64,000 nucleotides of DNA from an uncultured Nitrospirales bacterium (GCA_964411925.1 CAYPNI010000002.1:1653-65652); one strand, 5' to 3'; positions 31,933 through 39,575 are shown, numbered from the stretch's first letter. The notes: generated from the sequence alone by a model not told the origin. Numbers and translations are program-made.

Positions 31933-33267
31933 TCACTTCTGACAAACATTCGGTGCCGGGGCGTCGGGGAGCGGCACGGCGGCCCGAATGAGCGCCTGCT
32001 GGCGCTGAAACACGGGGCCGGCGACCGGATTGCGGACGAAGACGAGGCAGAGGCCGGCAACGGCGTATGCAATGACGAAGACGATGAACGCGGCGTGGTA
32101 ATCGCCGGTGGCGTCGTGGATGAGGCCGGCGATGGGGACGCCGCTGGCCTGGATGGGGAGCATGCAGGGGCTCATGAGCCCCATGACGCGGCCGAACACG
32201 GGGCGGGGGAAGTAATCGCCGACGAGCGAGCCCCAGAGCGGCACGACGCCGCCCATGCCGAAGCCGAAGATGGCGCCGGCGATCAGGAGTTCGTGGTAGG
32301 TGGTGGCGGGGAGGAAGAGGAGCGTGGCGACGGCCTGGAATGCGAGGCAGAGGACGAGGGCGAGGCGCGCGTCCACGTAGTCGGCGACGAACCCGAAGAG
32401 GATTTTGCCGACGACGCCGACGCCGGCCGAGACGGTGAGGATGTAGGACGCTTGAATGCGCGTGATGCCGAGATCGTGTGCGTGGGGGATCATGTGGATG
32501 AGCGTGGCGGCCATGGCGAAGAAGTTGAAGCCGATGCAGAGCGTGATCGCCCAGAACGTCGCGTTGCGCAGCGTGGCGAGGGTGGAGAAGTTCGACGTGA
32601 AGCGGGGCATGGGGCCGTGCGCGCCGAGATCGTCGTTCAGCGATACGCGGGCGCCGTCGGGGTTGAGGCCGATGTCTTCGGGCCGGCTGATCACGAAGAC
32701 CCAGACGATGGGGAGGAGCGCGCCGACGGAGAGCGCGCCGAAGATGAGGAAGGTGTCGCGCCAGCCGTAGTTGACGACGAAGTAGGACGTGACGGGGGCC
32801 ATGACCATGCCGGACATGGAGACGCCGGTCGTGGCGATGCCGAGCGCGGCGCCGCGGCGCCGGACGAACCAGTTCGAGACGAGGGCGGTGCTGGAGAGCT
32901 GGCCGATGCTGACGACGCCGAGGGCGAGAAAGGTGCCGATGAGGACGTAGAACTGCCAGAGGGCGGTGATGTGCGCGGCGAGGAAGAAGCCAACGCCGAG
33001 GCTGACGCAGCCGATCATCATGAGGCGGCGGACGGACCAGGTGTCGATGAAGCGGCCGAGGAACGGTGCGGCGAGGGCCATGGCGGTGTTCATGAGCGTG
33101 AGTCCCATGGCGACGGCGAAACGGGAGGCGCCGAATTCCTTCTGGATGGGCTCGAGGAAGACGCCGTAGGAGTAGAAAATGAAGCCGGTGGCGACGAAGA
33201 GTGTGATGAAGGTGGCGATGACGATCCACCAGCCGTAGAAAAAGAGTTTGAAGTTTCGCAGGAGCAT
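31933..33267 (-). CDS. Major facilitator superfamily transporter
   Basis: 12 predicted TM helices, 444 aa. The longer 637-aa frame listed on the same strand is a GC-driven open frame in a different frame and is discarded. Confidence 0.85.
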   Translation of the reverse strand: MLLRNFKLFFYGWWIVIATFITLFVATGFIFYSYGVFLEPIQKEFGASRFAVAMGLTLMNTAMALAAPFLGRFIDTWSVRRLMMIGCVSLGVGFFLAAHITALWQFYVLIGTFLALGVVSIGQLSSTALVSNWFVRRRGAALGIATTGVSMSGMVMAPVTSYFVVNYGWRDTFLIFGALSVGALLPIVWVFVISRPEDIGLNPDGARVSLNDDLGAHGPMPRFTSNFSTLATLRNATFWAITLCIGFNFFAMAATLIHMIPHAHDLGITRIQASYILTVSAGVGVVGKILFGFVADYVDARLALVLCLAFQAVATLLFLPATTYHELLIAGAIFGFGMGGVVPLWGSLVGDYFPRPVFGRVMGLMSPCMLPIQASGVPIAGLIHDATGDYHAAFIVFVIAYAVAGLCLVFVRNPVAGPVFQRQQALIRAAVPLPDAPAPNVCQK

Positions 33268-33316
33268 TGGTTAACAGGTGAACAATCTGCCGGGAGGTGC
33301 GAATTCCGCATGGTTC

Positions 33317-33425
33317 CTGGGAGCTTGGGGCGTTCGGGGCGGCGGCTGACCCGGCGCGCGTCGTCCCGATGCTTGCGATTATACGCGAGGATGCGTACCC
33401 GTGCACTCGGGCGGGCTAGCAGCCG
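33317..33425. repeat. 109-bp direct repeat, copy 1 (108/109 identical to copy 2); carries a consensus TATAAT on the minus strand at 33378-33383, upstream of the MFS gene
   Basis: ctgggagcttggggcgttcggggcggcggctgacccggcgcgcgtcgtcccgatgcttgcgattatacgcgaggatgcgtacccgtgcactcgggcgggc[t/g]agcagccg is present at both loci. The ORF track independently shows identical MHGYASSRIIASIGTTRAGSAAAPNAPSSQ peptides at both places. Confidence 0.9.
33378..33406 (-). promoter_or_regulatory. Putative promoter inside repeat copy 1 (perfect -10 TATAAT; weak -35), oriented toward the MFS transporter gene
   Basis: The minus strand reads ...gcatcctcgcgTATAATcgcaagcatc.... A TSS would lie about 100 nt upstream of the MFS ATG. 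Confidence 0.3.
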
Positions 33426-33516
33426 CCAGGCCAGCAGCGGCGACGGGGAACCTGGGCGATGATGCCACGGATCAGCAAAATCACGCCGAGGTCGCGCGGC
33501 CCGATGCTTTGCGAAA

Positions 33517-34974
33517 TTACCAGTCTGTGACGCCGATGTCGCGCAGTGCGTCTTGCGCCTCCTTGACTCCCATTCGGGCGGCGGTCACCCAATTCTCGGT
33601 CGCCTTCTTGATGTCCTCTGGGCCCAAGAGCCCTTTGTAGTACAGATTTCCAAGTTGATACCAGGCGATTGGTTCGCCATCGCGAGCGGCGGCGGCGAGG
33701 AGCGTTGCTGCTTCGCTGTAATTTCGCGGGGCGTCGCCTTCGATGTACATCATGGCGAGACTGTACATTCCGGCTGCGTATTCGAGTGCTGCCGACTTGC
33801 CGTACCACATGAGCGCCTTCGCGCTATCTTTATTTACGATGTCGCCCCCATCACGGTAGTGATCTCCGAGACGTTTCATGGCGCGTGGCAATCCACGATC
33901 GATGGCTCGCTCGTAGAGTTCGAGCGCTGCGGGTGCGTTTCGCTCGATACCGAGTCCGTCGGCGTACATGTCGGCAAGATTAGTCATGGCGAGTTCCATG
34001 CCGTCAGCGCCTTCGCCGGCCGACGCGTAGTACCTTGCGGCGCGTTTCGGGTCGGGTTCGACGCCGATGCCATGTTGGTAGGCTGCGCCAACCAGGAACT
34101 GTGCCTCTGTAGATCCCGATTCGGCGACCGTTTTTACGAAACCGAAGACTTCGCTGGCCAGTTTCGCGGCGCCGACGGGATCTTTCGAATAAACACTGAG
34201 TCCGTGAAACATGTTTCGTGCGATCCACATCTTCGCGATTCGATCGCCACGGTCGGCACATCGCTGAAAGAGGTCTCTGGACTGCAATCGATCATTCAAG
34301 TTGCCGGTGTGAGTCTGGAGCCTCACCGCTTCCTTCCGATCGTTCGCCGTCCTCAGGTCGACGAAGGGATCCACTTTGGATTGCAGAGGTAGAGGTGGGG
34401 GCGGCTCCGGTTCCGGAAAGGCGTACCACGTCCACGCCGCTGCGATGGCTGTCGCAATCGCGAGCGTCGCGACGAGCATACTGAGTCGCCGGGGCGGACG
34501 GTGCCCCGTAGGATTGGCTTTGGGCTGCGGGGCGGCGATTGGGCCCGAAATCAAGCGCGCAAGTCTGGCAGCGACCTCCGCGGGCGATTTTTCGCGAAGG
34601 TGTTCGAACTGCGCAGCACCGACACAGTACGCCAGCGCGGGCGGGAGTTCGGCGTCATCCGCGCGCACGGGATAGATTTTCTTGTCTTCTTCGAAGGCGA
34701 GTTGGACTTCGATCTGCACGTTTCTGGACTGGTTGGCATGTTCCGAAACAATGAGAATGAGGCCGCCGGAGGCCGTGATCGCCGGAGGAATGACGGCGGT
34801 ATAGACTTCGCCGGGGTTGATGTCGCGCACGGCACTCCAGCATTTCACGCCAAGCGACTCGAGCGCGTCGCGGATCCGATTCGCAGCGACCGTGTCTTCT
34901 GTCGCGTGACTTATGAACAGATAGCCCGGCCACCTCGACTTCAAAGCTGGTCCGGGTTCGAACGTGCCGCTCAT
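33517..34974 (-). CDS. TIR domain - single TM helix - Sel1-repeat protein (paralog 1)
   Basis: N-terminal YLFISHATED...RDINPGEVY...LILIVSEHANQSRNVQIEVQLA (TIR boxes 1/2 plus a conserved Glu). TM LSMLVATLAIATAIAAAWTWYAF. About 6 C-terminal Sel1-like repeats (AQFLVGAAYQHGIGVEPDPKRAARYY..., MTNLADMYADGLGIERNAPAALELY..., etc.). Lower GC than its flanks. Confidence 0.85.
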   Translation of the reverse strand: MSGTFEPGPALKSRWPGYLFISHATEDTVAANRIRDALESLGVKCWSAVRDINPGEVYTAVIPPAITASGGLILIVSEHANQSRNVQIEVQLAFEEDKKIYPVRADDAELPPALAYCVGAAQFEHLREKSPAEVAARLARLISGPIAAPQPKANPTGHRPPRRLSMLVATLAIATAIAAAWTWYAFPEPEPPPPLPLQSKVDPFVDLRTANDRKEAVRLQTHTGNLNDRLQSRDLFQRCADRGDRIAKMWIARNMFHGLSVYSKDPVGAAKLASEVFGFVKTVAESGSTEAQFLVGAAYQHGIGVEPDPKRAARYYASAGEGADGMELAMTNLADMYADGLGIERNAPAALELYERAIDRGLPRAMKRLGDHYRDGGDIVNKDSAKALMWYGKSAALEYAAGMYSLAMMYIEGDAPRNYSEAATLLAAAARDGEPIAWYQLGNLYYKGLLGPEDIKKATENWVTAARMGVKEAQDALRDIGVTDW

Positions 34975-36254
34975 TTTTCCGGCTCCCCCTCACGAGTCTG
35001 TAGCGCAGCTTTCGCTCGCGTGCTCCCGTTTTGCGCCGCCATCGCCCACAATTCGAGCGCGGCCTGCACATCGAGCGATACACCGGTGCCTGTAATGAGC
35101 ATCTCGCCGAGTTTGAACTGCGCGTCGGCATACTGGTGATCAGCTGCCTTCTTGTACTGTTGTACGGCGCGCACGCTGTCTACGCTCACTCCGCCCCGTC
35201 CCTCGCGGTAGACATCTCCAAGGCGGGTCATGGCTCGCACGTCTCCCCGTTCCTCAGCTTTTTGATACCACCGGATTGCCTCCGCCATGTTTTGTTGTTC
35301 TCCCAGCCCTACCTCGCACATGGTGCCGAGTTTGAACATTGCGATCGCATAGTCGGCATCGGCGGCCCGGCGATACCTATCCGCGGACTCCGTGGTATTC
35401 CGTTCGATTCCGATTCCCAATTCCAAGGCGTGCGCATAAAGGAACTGCGCCTCGACAGAACCAGAGTCCGCCAGAGACTGGACGCACCGCACGACCTTAC
35501 GGGCCTTTCGTATTGCGGCGGGACGATCCAAGGGAAACATGCCGTGCTCGTTATAAAGACTTCGAGCCACCCAAAGCGCCGCAAGCGGATCACCGCCGTT
35601 GTCGGCTTCTTCAAGCAATCGTCTGGAAAGCTCAAGATTGTCCTTGCCTGGATTCTTCTCATAGAGGTCGATGGCTTGCGATCGCGTCTCATCGAATTTT
35701 CTCGCGAGATCGGCATGGCATCGGGGGAGAGACACGTATCCCCCAAGCAAGAGCAGAACGAGAATGACGAATCCTGTAATGACATGTAGCTTGGATAATC
35801 TTCTCGGAGGACGGTCCTTCTTGGCGTCCGCATTCCCGTTGGGCGACCCGCGCGCTTCGCCAGATTTGATGGCGGTTTCCAACTTCGCGACGATTTGACG
35901 AAGCGGACCGTGTCTCGCGTCGATGTACTGATTGATGCTCAGGTAGTATTGAACAGTGTCGGGGGGAAGCGTGTCATCGAGTTGTACCGTCAACACGTTT
36001 TTGCCGTTCTGCACGGCGATTTCAAGTTCACGACGGACGTGCGGCGATTGAAGCGACCACTTCGACATGATTAGGACAAGGCATGTCGATTTTCTGATTC
36101 CCGCGACGATTTCGGAAGGGTACTCGTCTCCGGCTTTGATGTCGCGAGGGGCGATCCAGCAGGGAATATCTCTGACTTCGAGTTGATTGACGATTTGTCC
36201 CGCGAGTTTCTGATCCTCGGTCGCATGGCTGATGAATGCGCGGTGCGCCGGCAT
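34971..36254 (-). CDS. TIR domain - single TM helix - Sel1-repeat protein (paralog 2)
   Basis: AFISHATEDQKLAGQI...RDIKAGDEYPSEI...CLVLIMSKWSLQSPHVRRELEIAVQ is classical TIR box 1, box 2 and the S-W...E motif. TM LHVITGFVILVLLLLGGYV. C-terminal Sel1 repeats. GAGGGAGG SD 6 nt before the ATG. ATGA overlap with paralog 1. Confidence 0.85.
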   Translation of the reverse strand: MPAHRAFISHATEDQKLAGQIVNQLEVRDIPCWIAPRDIKAGDEYPSEIVAGIRKSTCLVLIMSKWSLQSPHVRRELEIAVQNGKNVLTVQLDDTLPPDTVQYYLSINQYIDARHGPLRQIVAKLETAIKSGEARGSPNGNADAKKDRPPRRLSKLHVITGFVILVLLLLGGYVSLPRCHADLARKFDETRSQAIDLYEKNPGKDNLELSRRLLEEADNGGDPLAALWVARSLYNEHGMFPLDRPAAIRKARKVVRCVQSLADSGSVEAQFLYAHALELGIGIERNTTESADRYRRAADADYAIAMFKLGTMCEVGLGEQQNMAEAIRWYQKAEERGDVRAMTRLGDVYREGRGGVSVDSVRAVQQYKKAADHQYADAQFKLGEMLITGTGVSLDVQAALELWAMAAQNGSTRAKAALQTREGEPEK

Positions 36255-36375
36255 CGTCGGCCTCCCTCAGAATAGACAGGCCAGCTATATTGGGATGCAG
36301 CGCTAGTAAAGTCAATTTAAATTCGCTTTGCGCCTGACGTTGCGCCGAGCGACGCGGGGCGATCCGCGAGGGGTG

Positions 36376-36484
36376 CTGGGAGCTTGGGGCGTTCGGGGCG
36401 GCGGCTGACCCGGCGCGCGTCGTCCCGATGCTTGCGATTATACGCGAGGATGCGTACCCGTGCACTCGGGCGGGCGAGCAGCCG
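36376..36484. repeat. 109-bp direct repeat, copy 2; TATAAT on the minus strand at 36437-36442, upstream of the TIR-Sel1 operon
   Basis: See copy 1. It lies between the kefB-like stop (36494) and the TIR paralog 2 start (36254). Confidence 0.9.
36437..36465 (-). promoter_or_regulatory. Putative promoter inside repeat copy 2 driving the TIR-Sel1 pair
   Basis: Same TATAAT-containing sequence as copy 1. It would give a ~170-nt 5' UTR ending in a strong SD. Confidence 0.3.
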
Positions 36485-36493
36485 GATCAGCGG

Positions 36494-38245
36494 TCAATCG
36501 TGATCGGCGTCCGCGGAGAGTCCCTCGAGCAGCGCCACTTGCAGCTTGGCGTGGATGAGGATGAGTTTTTTGCGCAGAAACACGGCGAGCAGGGTGACGA
36601 TGCCGGTAACGAGCAGCAGCAGTTCGATGGGCGGCAGGATGCTGGAGCTCAGCGCGGAGATGAGAAGCGCGAACAGCAATATGGCGGCGAGCGGGATAAT
36701 TTCGGCGAGGGCCATTCGAACGCGGAGATTGGGCGCGGTGGCGCCGGATCCGCGCGACTGCGCGAGGATGATGCTGAGGCCTTTGAGTTTGCGGTAGACG
36801 GCGTAGACGAAGGGGAGCGAGGCCGTGAGCGCGGCGGCCCAGAGGAGCGCGCGCTGGTAGCGTTCGTCGAGCGCGCCGGCGCCGATCAACTCCAAGAGCG
36901 GCGCGGCGAAGAGCGCCATGCCGAGGAAGGCGGCGGCGACAAGGAGGCAATTGACGGCAATCTGGGCAAGTGTGCGTCGCACGACTTTTACCGTGAGCGA
37001 TTCGCGCCCGGAGGGCTGGGTGGACTGGAGCCAGTCGGTGTAGAGCTGGGACTCGCGCCGGATGGACGCGGGGATCACGCGGCCGATGCGGGTGGCGAAC
37101 GGATCGGAGAGGCGAATCAGATAGGGCGTGAAGAGGGTGGTGATGGCGGAGACGGCCACGGCGATGGGATAGAGGAAGTCGCTGGTGACGCCGAAGCTCA
37201 GGCCGAGCGCGGCGATGATGAAGGAGAATTCGCCGATCTGCGCGAGGCCCATGCCGACGCGGAGGGAGGTGCGCGGGCCGTTGCCCGTGACGAATGCGCC
37301 GGCTCCGCAGGCGAGGACCTTGCCGATGACGACGGCGGCGGTGATGACGGCGATGGGCCATGCGTGGCTGACGAGAATGGCGGGGTCGAGCAGCATGCCG
37401 ACGGTGACGAAGAAAATCGCGCTGAACATGTCCCGAATCGGCGCGACGAGGCGCTCGATGCGCGGAAGGTCGCGGGCTTCGGCGATGACGGCGCCGATCA
37501 TGAACGCGCCGAGGGCGACGCTGTAACCGAGTTTGAGCACAACGAGACAGAAGCCGAAGCAGAGGCCGAGGACGGTGACGAGGAGCATTTCATCGCGCTC
37601 GAACCGGGCGACGTAGGCCAGGAGCCGCGGAACGAGGAGCAGGCCGGCGAGCATGGCGACGACCATGAAAACGCCGAGTTTGCCGACGGTGCCGGCGATT
37701 TGAACGGCGTCCATATCGCCGGTGACGGCGAGGCTGGACAGTAGCGCGATGATGGCGATGGCGAGGATGTCTTCGACGATGAGTATGCCGAAGATGAGCT
37801 GGGCGAACCGCTCCTGTTTGAGCCCGAGTTCGTCGAGCGCCTTGATGATGATGGTGGTGGACGAGATGGCGAGCATGGCGCCGAGGAAGATGGAATCCAT
37901 GGACGCCCAACCGAAGAACCGGCCGATTTCGTAGCCGACCCAGATCATCAGAATGATTTCAGCAGTCGCCGCGACGAGCGCGGAGACGCCGACGCGCCGC
38001 AGCTTTCGCAGGCTGAATTCCATGCCGAGCGAGAGCATGAGCAGGATGACGCCCAGTTCAGCGAGCGACTGGATGGTCACTTCGTCGACGACGAGCGGGA
38101 AGGGCGGTGTGTAGGGGCCGATGACAAATCCGGCGAGGATATAACCCAGGACGACGGGCTGGCGGAGGTGATGGAAGATGAGGGTGATGACGCCGGCGAT
38201 CAGCATGATCACGGCGAGATCCTGAATGAAATGAGTGGCGTGCAT
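36494..38245 (-). CDS. Monovalent cation:proton antiporter (CPA2 / Kef-type) without an RCK domain
   Basis: MHATHFIQDLAVIMLIAGVITLIFHHLRQPVVLGYILAGFVIGP is the typical CPA2 N-terminus. About 13 TM helices, with a C-terminal extra membrane domain instead of TrkA-N. GGGAG SD ahead of the ATG at 38245. The ORF-track start at 38308 would add an implausible 21-aa lead overlapping the promoter-like motif. Confidence 0.8.
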   Translation of the reverse strand: MHATHFIQDLAVIMLIAGVITLIFHHLRQPVVLGYILAGFVIGPYTPPFPLVVDEVTIQSLAELGVILLMLSLGMEFSLRKLRRVGVSALVAATAEIILMIWVGYEIGRFFGWASMDSIFLGAMLAISSTTIIIKALDELGLKQERFAQLIFGILIVEDILAIAIIALLSSLAVTGDMDAVQIAGTVGKLGVFMVVAMLAGLLLVPRLLAYVARFERDEMLLVTVLGLCFGFCLVVLKLGYSVALGAFMIGAVIAEARDLPRIERLVAPIRDMFSAIFFVTVGMLLDPAILVSHAWPIAVITAAVVIGKVLACGAGAFVTGNGPRTSLRVGMGLAQIGEFSFIIAALGLSFGVTSDFLYPIAVAVSAITTLFTPYLIRLSDPFATRIGRVIPASIRRESQLYTDWLQSTQPSGRESLTVKVVRRTLAQIAVNCLLVAAAFLGMALFAAPLLELIGAGALDERYQRALLWAAALTASLPFVYAVYRKLKGLSIILAQSRGSGATAPNLRVRMALAEIIPLAAILLFALLISALSSSILPPIELLLLVTGIVTLLAVFLRKKLILIHAKLQVALLEGLSADADHD

Positions 38246-39349: not shown

Positions 39350-39575
39350 CCGCGGATCGATGAGCCGCTTCACCGCGGATCAACATCGCGGATTGCCGCC
39401 GGGACGGCGGCCCTACGATACGAGGCCGATCCGTCGCTGTTTTCGGCATGGCTGGATCGTTGGACCTGCGTCGGATGAGCCAGAAAGTCTCGTTCAACGG
39501 ATCGACGAAATGGATCTTTCTGGACGGCGCGGTCTGTGGTTCGGACGCAGTGGCGCGAAGCGATCCGATCCGCGA

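Follow-up and report, generated by a model that had tools for sequence, protein, structure and literature searches.

Two overlapping genes encode TIR proteins with Sel1-like repeats

The window analysed here is a stretch of 64,000 nucleotides from an uncultured Nitrospirales bacterium (GCA_964411925.1, CAYPNI010000002.1:1653-65652), with positions counted from its first letter. It contains two adjacent genes, termed A and B, that each encode an N-terminal TIR domain, a single transmembrane (TM) helix and a C-terminal solenoid of Sel1-like repeats (SLR). Their features, derived from the open reading frames (ORFs), database matches, hydropathy and AlphaFold2 (AF2) models scored by predicted local distance difference test (pLDDT), are as follows.

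34971..36254, minus strand: gene A, TIR-TM-Sel1 protein of 427 aa (ORF; Pfam TIR_2 and Sel1; AF2 mean pLDDT 86.5)
33517..34974, minus strand: gene B, paralogous TIR-TM-Sel1 protein of 485 aa (ORF; Pfam; AF2 mean pLDDT 86.4)
35862..36245, minus strand: A TIR domain, residues about 4-131, predicted cytoplasmic (Pfam TIR_2; alternating strand/helix fold, pLDDT 91-97)
34543..34926, minus strand: B TIR domain, residues about 17-144, predicted cytoplasmic (Pfam TIR_2; Foldseek matches BtpA 4lzp_D and MAL 5uzb_A)
35727..35783, minus strand: A single TM helix, residues 158-176, VITGFVILVLLLLGGYVSL (Kyte-Doolittle 19-residue mean 2.49; AF2 helix)
34429..34485, minus strand: B single TM helix, residues 164-182 (Kyte-Doolittle mean 1.86; AF2 helix at model residues 162-184)
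34992..35726, minus strand: A SLR solenoid, residues about 177-421, predicted periplasmic (Pfam Sel1; PDB matches; AF2; Foldseek)
33538..34356, minus strand: B SLR solenoid, residues about 207-479, predicted periplasmic (Pfam Sel1; AF2; Foldseek)

Genes A and B lie head to tail on the same strand, the start of B sharing 4 nt (ATGA) with the stop of A. The junction reads GAAAAATGAGC (codons GAA AAA TGA / ATG AGC), and Shine-Dalgarno-like sequences (GGGAGG for A, GGGGGAG for B) are located 7-10 nt 5' of the respective ATG. Pairwise alignment gives 32% identity over 398 columns (E 2e-54), and as identity is this low across the whole length, A and B can be regarded as old paralogues. An earlier note on this DNA had described two ATGA-overlapped paralogues, and both the junction, which was read directly, and the alignment bear this out. 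A chance origin of the domain matches is not an issue, since they are high-scoring and occur in two intact, translationally coupled ORFs.

The TIR domains retain a glutamate at the catalytic position

Pfam TIR_2 (PF13676) matches residues 7-116 of A (E 4.6e-22, 79.2 bits) and 20-129 of B (E 2.9e-17, 63.7 bits) against a cut-off of 28, and the AF2 models display a flavodoxin-like beta/alpha alternation over both TIR domains (pLDDT 91-97). The motifs claimed in the earlier note can be read directly from both translations: box 1 FISHA (A 7-11, B 20-24), box 2 as RDIKAGDEY (A 37-45) and RDINPGEVY (B 50-58), and the S-x5-E segment as SPHVRRE (A 70-76) and SRNVQIE (B 83-89). The residues relevant to catalysis map as follows.

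36027..36029, minus strand: A Glu76 codon GAA (hhalign column of the SARM1 catalytic E642)
34708..34710, minus strand: B Glu89 codon GAA (alignments; column of A Glu76)
36039-36041, minus strand: A His72, at the SARM1 W638 position (alignment)
34720-34722, minus strand: B Asn85, at the SARM1 W638 position (alignment)

The proposal that this glutamate occupies the position used by NAD+-cleaving TIR enzymes (NADases) was confirmed for both proteins at the level of sequence-profile alignment. When a profile of nine TIR sequences was aligned by hhalign with the human SARM1 TIR (a query identical to the PDB chains, residue 1 being 561), SPHVRRELEIAV paired with KDWVHKEIVTAL, placing A E76 at E642 and A H72 at W638. 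A profile search of the PDB found the E76 column to be Glu in Cat1, oyster TIR-STING and PdTIR also, and Glu76 and Glu89 sit in helix alpha-C of confident AF2 models. Among the nine closest TIR sequences eight columns are invariant, E76 included, and in a subfamily alignment 83 of 85 relatives have Glu in this column. It is accompanied by a conserved set comprising F7, D14, C32, W33, R37, D38 and S70 (A numbering). Four residues before the Glu column, 37 of the 85 carry Gln and 35 carry His, and none carries Trp. Hence, of the features of enzymatic TIRs, the alpha-C Glu at the SARM1 E642 position is present in A and B and the Trp at the W638 position is not. As judged from these alignments, the glutamate is retained and correctly placed, which is necessary yet insufficient for NADase activity, and the subfamily may have an active site composed differently from those of the NADase TIRs characterised so far.

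At 21 highly conserved columns A departs from the family consensus twice and B four times. The motif CWIAPRD is near-invariant across the 85 subfamily TIRs, and the B version is degenerate (CWSAVRD). Among PDB TIR structures, Foldseek matched the A TIR best to the AbTir filament with 3AD (7uxu_A), with a target-normalised template modelling score of 0.82 and a root-mean-square deviation of 2.6 over 134 columns. The B TIR matched Brucella BtpA/TcpB (4lzp_D, score 0.65) and the MAL TIR (5uzb_A, 0.73).

A single helix is predicted to place TIR and Sel1 on opposite sides of the membrane

Hydropathy analysis yields one qualifying TM segment per protein. No segment of A besides residues 158-176 exceeds a Kyte-Doolittle value of 1.6, and the second window above 1.6 in B (residues 59-77, mean 1.71) lies inside the TIR fold. 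By the same measure a hydrophobic N-terminus is absent, the maximum within the first 40 residues being 0.56 for A and 0.08 for B. The AF2 models, in which numbering equals protein numbering minus one, are confident for the TIR domain and the Sel1 solenoid of both proteins, with low confidence confined to the linker and the TM helix region.

The TIR-side flank of the helix carries six K+R in A (DAKKDRPPRRLSKLH) and four in B (GHRPPRR), compared to four and zero on the C-side, where B reads PEPEPPPP. A similar bias is seen in 54 single-TM relatives (described below), with K+R in 15 residues of 3.63 on the TIR side versus 1.48 on the far side and a TIR-side excess in 47 of the 54 (Wilcoxon p = 2e-9). 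A hydrophobic stretch ahead of the TIR is found in none of the relatives' ORFs. Since A and B lack a signal peptide and conform, as do the 54 relatives, to the positive-inside rule, an N-in/C-out layout with a cytoplasmic TIR, one TM helix and an extracytoplasmic Sel1 domain is well supported by computation. The outer position of Sel1 is further suggested by two Ser/Thr receptor kinases (P0006 and P0009) in which the kinase domain is followed by a TM helix, a Pro-rich linker and a Sel1 region 39-40% identical to that of A: the kinase faces cytoplasmic ATP, as the TIR would face NAD+. It is also suggested by weak NCBIfam similarities of the Sel1 part to MotX, ExoR, AlgK and MerG, which are periplasmic proteins.

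Hydropathy, flank charge and the asymmetry among the relatives thus agree with the earlier note, which had proposed proteins devoid of a signal peptide with a single helix, TIR in and Sel1 out. The likeness it drew to Toll-like receptors (TLRs) holds for a sensor outside and a TIR inside; the polarity, however, is reversed (type II, TIR first), and Sel1 replaces the leucine-rich repeats (LRR).

Sel1 ectodomains

Both C-terminal regions are well-formed members of the SLR family. Pfam Sel1 (PF08238) is matched with E 5e-26 (90.6 bits) by A and E 1e-28 (98.8 bits) by B, the cut-off being 30.7, and sequence matches of the Sel1 region to Sel1 proteins in the PDB reach down to E 1e-47. AF2 models the A solenoid as 13 helices with pLDDT mostly >90 and that of B as helical repeats with pLDDT >90, and Foldseek matches both to SLR proteins, including LpnE and LceB. 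Sel1 domains similar to that of A are fused elsewhere to caspase/CHAT domains (P0002; plasmid matches H6 and H9), in P0002 following an N-terminal hydrophobic, signal-like segment; the Sel1 repeat module is thus joined to several death- or signalling-type domains.

The gene pair resides on a recently inserted cassette

The two genes are contained in a segment flanked by direct repeats.

33426..36370, no strand assigned: insert-specific DNA with A and B, 2945 nt (missing from the collinear contig L081)
33312..33425, no strand assigned: direct repeat copy 1, native intergenic segment 5' of the major facilitator superfamily (MFS) gene, downstream of B (repeat search; L081 homology)
36371..36484, no strand assigned: second copy of the direct repeat, a duplicate of the native intergenic segment, upstream of A (repeat search; L081 antiporter-MFS homology)

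The repeat measures 114 nt at 97% (family D2), with a core of ~110 nt containing one mismatch, and its copies are 3059 nt apart. An empty version of the site was found in L081, a farmland-soil metagenome contig reached via a 90%-identity cluster member of the neighbouring short-chain dehydrogenase/reductase (SDR) gene. L081 keeps the gene order of the window, and the DNA of the two is about 80-88% identical; its MFS and Na+/H+ exchanger genes are adjacent and separated by a single copy of the segment (L081:3596-3789), and in both sequences native DNA runs from this segment (copy 1 in the window) into the MFS gene. A search of species-representative contigs via the neighbouring antiporter gave no empty site, with a best identity of <=61%.

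The composition of the insert is also deviant. Its GC content of 0.587 compares to a window mean of 0.637 and falls in the lowest 0.2% of 2945-nt windows, while GC at third codon positions is 0.63 in A and 0.68 in B versus 0.77-0.92 in the eight other genes measured. The A/B cassette has evidently been acquired horizontally and inserted recently, and A and B were transferred as a unit, since they are only 32% identical yet arrived together.

Neither an integrase nor terminal inverted repeats were found around the insert, and ten related loci lack flanking direct repeats of comparable kind. Candidate mechanisms of insertion are the integration of a segment-bearing circle by one crossover and the filling-in of a staggered break. 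The ~110-nt repeat is not a known RNA, as an Rfam scan of the window finds no match. Whether gene A draws a promoter from the duplicated segment is conjecture, and stays so because a sigma-70 consensus scan of 33200-36600 finds no site.

TIR-TM proteins with variable C-terminal domains form a large family

Close homologues are scarce. An exact look-up of protein A on contigs gave no match, both proteins are singletons in a collection of 15 billion proteins, and among 5.8 billion clustered proteins no close relative of A was found, the matches covering the TIR half or the Sel1 half only. Plasmid records contain no full-length homologue, nor do phage records, in which just two weak TIR-only matches were seen. 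In a word-index homology search the A TIR domain alone gave one match and the nine-sequence TIR profile 14.

A profile search reached much further. Exhaustive hidden Markov model (HMM) comparison with the TIR profile identified 186,138 cluster representatives at E <= 1e-3 among 1.84 billion, and thus a very large bacterial subfamily marked by the signature FISHA...CWIAPRD...S-x5-E. The best 150 matches (P0048-P0197) all contain 2-7 tandem TIR domains in up to 2330 aa and, being multi-TIR proteins, are silent on the TM/Sel1 architecture; multi-TIR single-chain architectures are common in the subfamily.

The architecture of relatives was therefore taken from 80 loci of a metagenome scan seeded with FISHATED and CW[IS]A[PV]RDI, which derive from soil and other environmental metagenomes. 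These contain 73 complete ORFs with an N-terminal TIR, of which 54 have exactly one hydrophobic helix after it, making TIR, one TM helix and a variable C-terminal domain the commonest architecture in this A-biased sample. The median distance from TIR end to helix is about 36 residues and the median C-terminal region about 250. The C-terminal domains of 85 scanned sequences, A and B together with 83 relatives, comprise FGE-sulfatase (13), TPR (9), Sel1 (4, with A and B counted) and WD40 (3); at locus L132 each of the three genes encodes a Kelch propeller, and most other C-terminal regions have no assigned domain. We define a TIR-TM-ectodomain class by an N-terminal TIR (FISHA / CWIAPRD / S-x5-E), exactly one TM helix ~20-100 residues after it, an excess of K/R on the TIR-facing flank of this helix and at least 100 residues in the C-terminal region. 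All of these features are seen in A, and likewise in B with the degenerate CWSAVRD. Of the 73 complete relatives in the sample, 54 belong to this class.

Tandem arrays of 2-4 TIR genes are found in 14 of the 80 loci, usually with the same kind of C-terminal domain. The 4-nt ATGA overlap recurs in L121 and L153, and the genes of L111 abut. The earlier note suggested that the two paralogues may form a heterodimeric signalling or effector pair. Co-transfer of A and B together with these recurrent tandem or ATGA-overlapped relatives favours the view that A and B function together; arrays of three or four genes are equally compatible with obligate pairing and with a varied set of receptors. In some arrays (L121, L153, L112 and L132) one TIR matches all 21 conserved columns and its neighbour departs at 5-11. 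Such a mix of canonical and divergent TIRs recalls receptor pairs, and the asymmetry is mild in the window.

The size and provenance of this family bear on whether A and B might be host-directed virulence factors of the Tcp/Btp type, which interfere with eukaryotic TLR signalling, with Sel1 as a host-interaction module comparable to Legionella LpnE and LceB. Such a role would agree with the Foldseek matches, which link the B TIR to BtpA/TcpB and the Sel1 solenoids to LpnE and LceB. The proteins have an internal TM anchor and no secretion signal, however, no secretion-system context surrounds the cassette, and the relatives come from soil and environmental metagenomes in a family of enormous size. 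We consider a virulence function very improbable.

Related TIR genes are associated with RyR-domain genes

Among 120 ORFs flanking the TIR genes of the related loci, the commonest Pfam assignment is the RyR domain (12 ORFs); SLATT, TrkA_N, TPR-S, DUF4231 and patatin also occur. An HMM built from the RyR regions of these flanking ORFs detected RyR-like ORFs at 16 of the 80 TIR loci (0.54 Mb) versus none of 80 unrelated control loci (1.46 Mb), with one in L085. RyR (PF02026) is present at L088, L091, L095, L096, L098, L099, L106, L114, L121, L123, L126, L132, L148, L152, L153 and L156. Many of the RyR genes are on the same strand as the TIR gene, at a distance of 30-90 nt or overlapping it. The partner architectures include TrkA_N-RyR, PAS-HisKA-RyR, AAA-RyR, an unassigned N-terminal region joined to RyR, and an adenylate/guanylate cyclase-AAA-RyR protein adjoining a cyclic nucleotide monophosphate-binding protein.

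Further neighbours were observed at individual loci. A Macro-domain gene is located directly upstream of the TIR-TM-Sel1 gene of L087 (L087:5384-5887), and patatin-like phospholipase genes adjoin TIR-TM genes in L164 (7562-8692) and L085 (4426-5559), L164 also having an nSTAND1-WD40 gene nearby. The Macro and patatin neighbours provide an anecdotal link to ADP-ribose (ADPR) chemistry and effector-type enzymes.

The associations with RyR, Macro, SLATT and similar genes argue that the TIR subfamily may be enzymatically active and make ADPR-type signals. Phage RyR-domain proteins have been reported to bind or cleave the TIR products 2'cADPR and 3'cADPR, two forms of cyclic ADPR (2026 preprint, PMC13232231). 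SLATT, TPR-S and patatin classes act as Thoeris effectors, and operons of TIR with SLATT or with an ion channel are recognised Thoeris types, in the largest systematic survey, one that discarded stand-alone TIR proteins (bioRxiv 10.64898/2025.12.03.692087).

These neighbours raise the question whether A and B act as Thoeris-like generators in trans, producing a cADPR-type messenger for a receptor or effector (RyR-, SLATT-, Macro- or SIR2-type) encoded elsewhere. This would be a sub-case of the sensor-pair reading set out below, differing in the final step in that NAD+ depletion is not the output. It would be in keeping with RyR partners at 16 of 80 related loci, fused to the transducer-like TrkA_N, PAS-HisKA, AAA and cyclase modules, with the recognition of 2'cADPR and 3'cADPR by RyR domains (PMC13232231) and with the known TIR+SLATT and TIR+ion-channel Thoeris types (bioRxiv 10.64898/2025.12.03.692087). 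In contrast, no such gene is located in the cassette or within 64 kb, and a fresh 3-kb cassette would need a compatible receptor already in the host, which leaves a generator acting in trans quite unlikely.

The same associations count against a different explanation, in which A and B form a non-enzymatic envelope scaffold or regulator, with Sel1 binding cell-wall enzymes or peptidoglycan and the TIR serving as a homotypic interaction module, as in TLRs and adaptors. That view draws on a Glu that is not diagnostic (PMC7075850), on the Trp position not being conserved, and on a locus with no effector and no defence context. TM-preceded Sel1-repeat domains have, moreover, been described as peptidoglycan-associating modules (PMC7159879), and the weak NCBIfam similarity to ExoR, MotX and AlgK points the same way. 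However, conservation of the Glu in 83 of 85 TIRs together with its surrounding residues is what an active site would be expected to show, the closest fold of the A TIR is that of an active NADase (AbTir), and the family's association with RyR, Macro and SLATT genes points to nucleotide products. A foreign, recently inserted cassette would furthermore be unusual for a housekeeping envelope function. A purely structural role is, on this balance, unlikely.

Relation to characterised TIR and SLR proteins

A and B share with AbTir, ThsB, Cat1 and TIR-STING the TIR_2 fold and the alpha-C Glu at the catalytic column, AbTir being the best fold match of A. Those enzymes stand beside an effector gene and are either soluble or joined to sensor or effector domains in the cytoplasm, whereas A and B are tethered by a TM helix to a periplasmic Sel1 domain, have no adjacent effector, and carry His or Asn in place of Trp. 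With SARM1 the correspondence of E642 to A E76 extends to the surrounding S-x-x-x-x-x-E-(L/I) helix; SARM1 differs in W638, in its ARM-SAM regulatory domains and in being a soluble, mitochondria-associated octamer. Thoeris is resembled by related loci rather than by the window, through their Macro, SLATT, TPR-S and patatin neighbours, and the A/B cassette does not have the arrangement that characterises Thoeris, a TIR gene in an operon with a signal-activated effector.

Parallels also exist for the membrane tether. Dictyostelium TirC is a membrane-tethered TIR NADase of bacterial origin, held at the membrane via a single hydrophobic helix, and the tether restrains a highly active NADase (PMC13142454); its helix is N-terminal, however, and it has no ectodomain. 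The Sel1 receptor kinases P0006 and P0009, like A and B, carry a catalytic domain at a cytoplasmic N-terminus, followed by one TM helix, a linker and Sel1, and differ in a kinase rather than TIR output and in being single genes rather than a pair. The solenoid itself is canonical, as in the SLR proteins of Oxalobacter (6ok3, 6ork), E. coli c5321/EsiB, HcpC, LpnE and AlgK. These are secreted or periplasmic stand-alone proteins, whereas in A and B the solenoid forms the C-terminal 250-280 residues of a TIR membrane protein.

TLRs and IL-1R offer the likeness of a repeat-solenoid or other ectodomain, a single TM helix and a cytoplasmic TIR with Glu in the same column, and their paralogous receptors pair up (TLR1/2/6; IL-1R with its accessory protein; PMC7075850). 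TLRs are type I proteins with a signal peptide, an N-terminal LRR ectodomain, a C-terminal TIR and MyD88-type adaptors. A and B, in contrast, have an N-terminal TIR, no signal peptide, Sel1 instead of LRR and no MyD88-type adaptors, and their output, unlike that of TLRs, is probably enzymatic. They do not have the type I topology of TLRs, so that the likeness concerns layout only; it is convergent and does not indicate family membership.

A proposed mobile outside-in sensor pair

Taken together with the architecture, charge-based topology, glutamate alignment, fold, insertion, family architecture and neighbourhoods reported above, the reading we favour is that A and B form a mobile, two-gene outside-in sensor pair of single-pass inner-membrane proteins, in which the periplasmic Sel1 domains sense a cue and the TIR domains assemble and cleave NAD+. 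We assign this reading, which is drawn from sequence and predicted structure, a probability of about one in two. Ligand sensing, oligomerisation-dependent activation, NAD+ chemistry and a role in defence are the elements we infer. In outline, the Sel1 domains would either bind a ligand outside the cytoplasm or detect a disturbance of the envelope, the cue being, for instance, a piece of cell wall, a protein of the envelope or part of a phage. This binding would alter the association of the membrane-tethered TIRs in A-A, B-B or A-B assemblies, building a composite TIR active site around Glu76 and Glu89 at which NAD+ could be cleaved. As no effector gene is present in the cassette or the 64-kb window, the output would consist either in NAD+ depletion, with growth arrest or abortive infection, or in a messenger of the cADPR type for a protein encoded elsewhere. 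Swapping of C-terminal domains, a single TM helix and tandem arrays are a logic typical of receptor and conflict systems.

Several observations weigh against this sensor-pair reading. No RyR-like ORF was found within the 64-kb window and no effector partner in the cassette, where only A and B were inserted, while PADLOC returned only weak matches confined to the TIR domain. The neighbours of the cassette (MFS transporter, Na+/H+ exchanger, SDR, pyrroloquinoline quinone dehydrogenase) are metabolic or housekeeping genes, and the locus is for this reason not a defence island. A close homologue was found for neither A nor B, and the other TIR-TM-Sel1 genes, in L087 and L164, have no second TIR gene in the available DNA (the L087 gene runs to the contig end, its downstream side being outside the data). 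The 80 loci were picked by similarity to A and contain near-duplicates, and the topology is based on hydropathy and charge bias. With regard to catalysis, SARM1, Cat1, TIR-STING and PdTIR have a Trp four residues ahead of the Glu, where A has His72 and B has Asn85. TLR6 and TLR15 TIRs, which are not known to be enzymatic, carry Glu in the same column in the PDB profile search. The Glu is moreover reported in >70% of all TIRs (PMC7075850), and its retention is on both counts necessary rather than diagnostic for an NADase.

TIR domains, Sel1 domains and bacterial TIR immunity are each already known. In the literature that could be searched we came across no account of a bacterial TIR protein that spans the membrane and carries a sensor domain outside the cytoplasm, a negative result that falls short of proof. 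Descriptions of TIR immunity in bacteria have to date concerned sensors located in the cytoplasm. If membrane TIR proteins are active, envelope events such as phage adsorption, cell-wall damage or neighbour signals could be coupled to cytoplasmic NAD+ chemistry. To our knowledge, the TLR-type layout has been thought to be a eukaryotic invention; in A and B it appears in mirror image. The pair furthermore offers a compact case, being a 3-kb, two-gene, recently transferred cassette with L081 as a natural empty-site control.

A broader proposal, tentative and on present evidence doubtful, is that A and B belong to a widespread prokaryotic class of TM TIR receptors, in which outer repeat or propeller domains would sense, TIRs would make NAD+-derived messengers and RyR proteins would decode them. 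The ectodomains of such a class would comprise Sel1, TPR, Kelch, WD40 and FGE-sulfatase, with RyR, where present, fused to kinase, cyclase, AAA or RCK/TrkA modules. The RyR-gene association leads to the concrete prediction that the RyR module reads the TIR product. If the receptor-class proposal is true, bacteria would have an outside-in signalling or immunity pathway with the layout of TLRs in mirror image, and the link between cADPR and RyR would be anchored in the gene neighbourhoods of bacteria.

Further features of the locus

Three additional features were noted on the minus strand.

35793..35813, minus strand: A juxtamembrane motif RPPRRLS, residues 148-154 (identical in B, pairwise alignment)
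34480-34500, minus strand: B juxtamembrane motif RPPRRLS, residues 159-165 (identical in A)
33482..33498, minus strand: terminator-like hairpin followed by ATTTTGCTGA (pattern scan; 19 nt past the gene B stop)

RPPRRLS thus provides seven identical residues immediately ahead of the TM helix of both paralogues despite 32% overall identity. It is not family-wide: RR precedes the TM helix in 15 of the 54 single-TM relatives, and a Tat-type (twin-arginine translocation) signal anchor as a family feature was rejected on this count. Terminator-like sites in the region are no more frequent than expected by chance, and it is the position alone of the 33482..33498 hairpin that is suggestive.

A second presence/absence difference separates L081 from the window. 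In L081 a segment of ~8 kb (L081:6579-14743) separates the SDR gene from the following gene common to both sequences. It is missing from the window at 39350-39575, and its products include an FG-GAP protein, a metallophosphatase and a Ser/Thr kinase-WD40 protein of 1345 aa.

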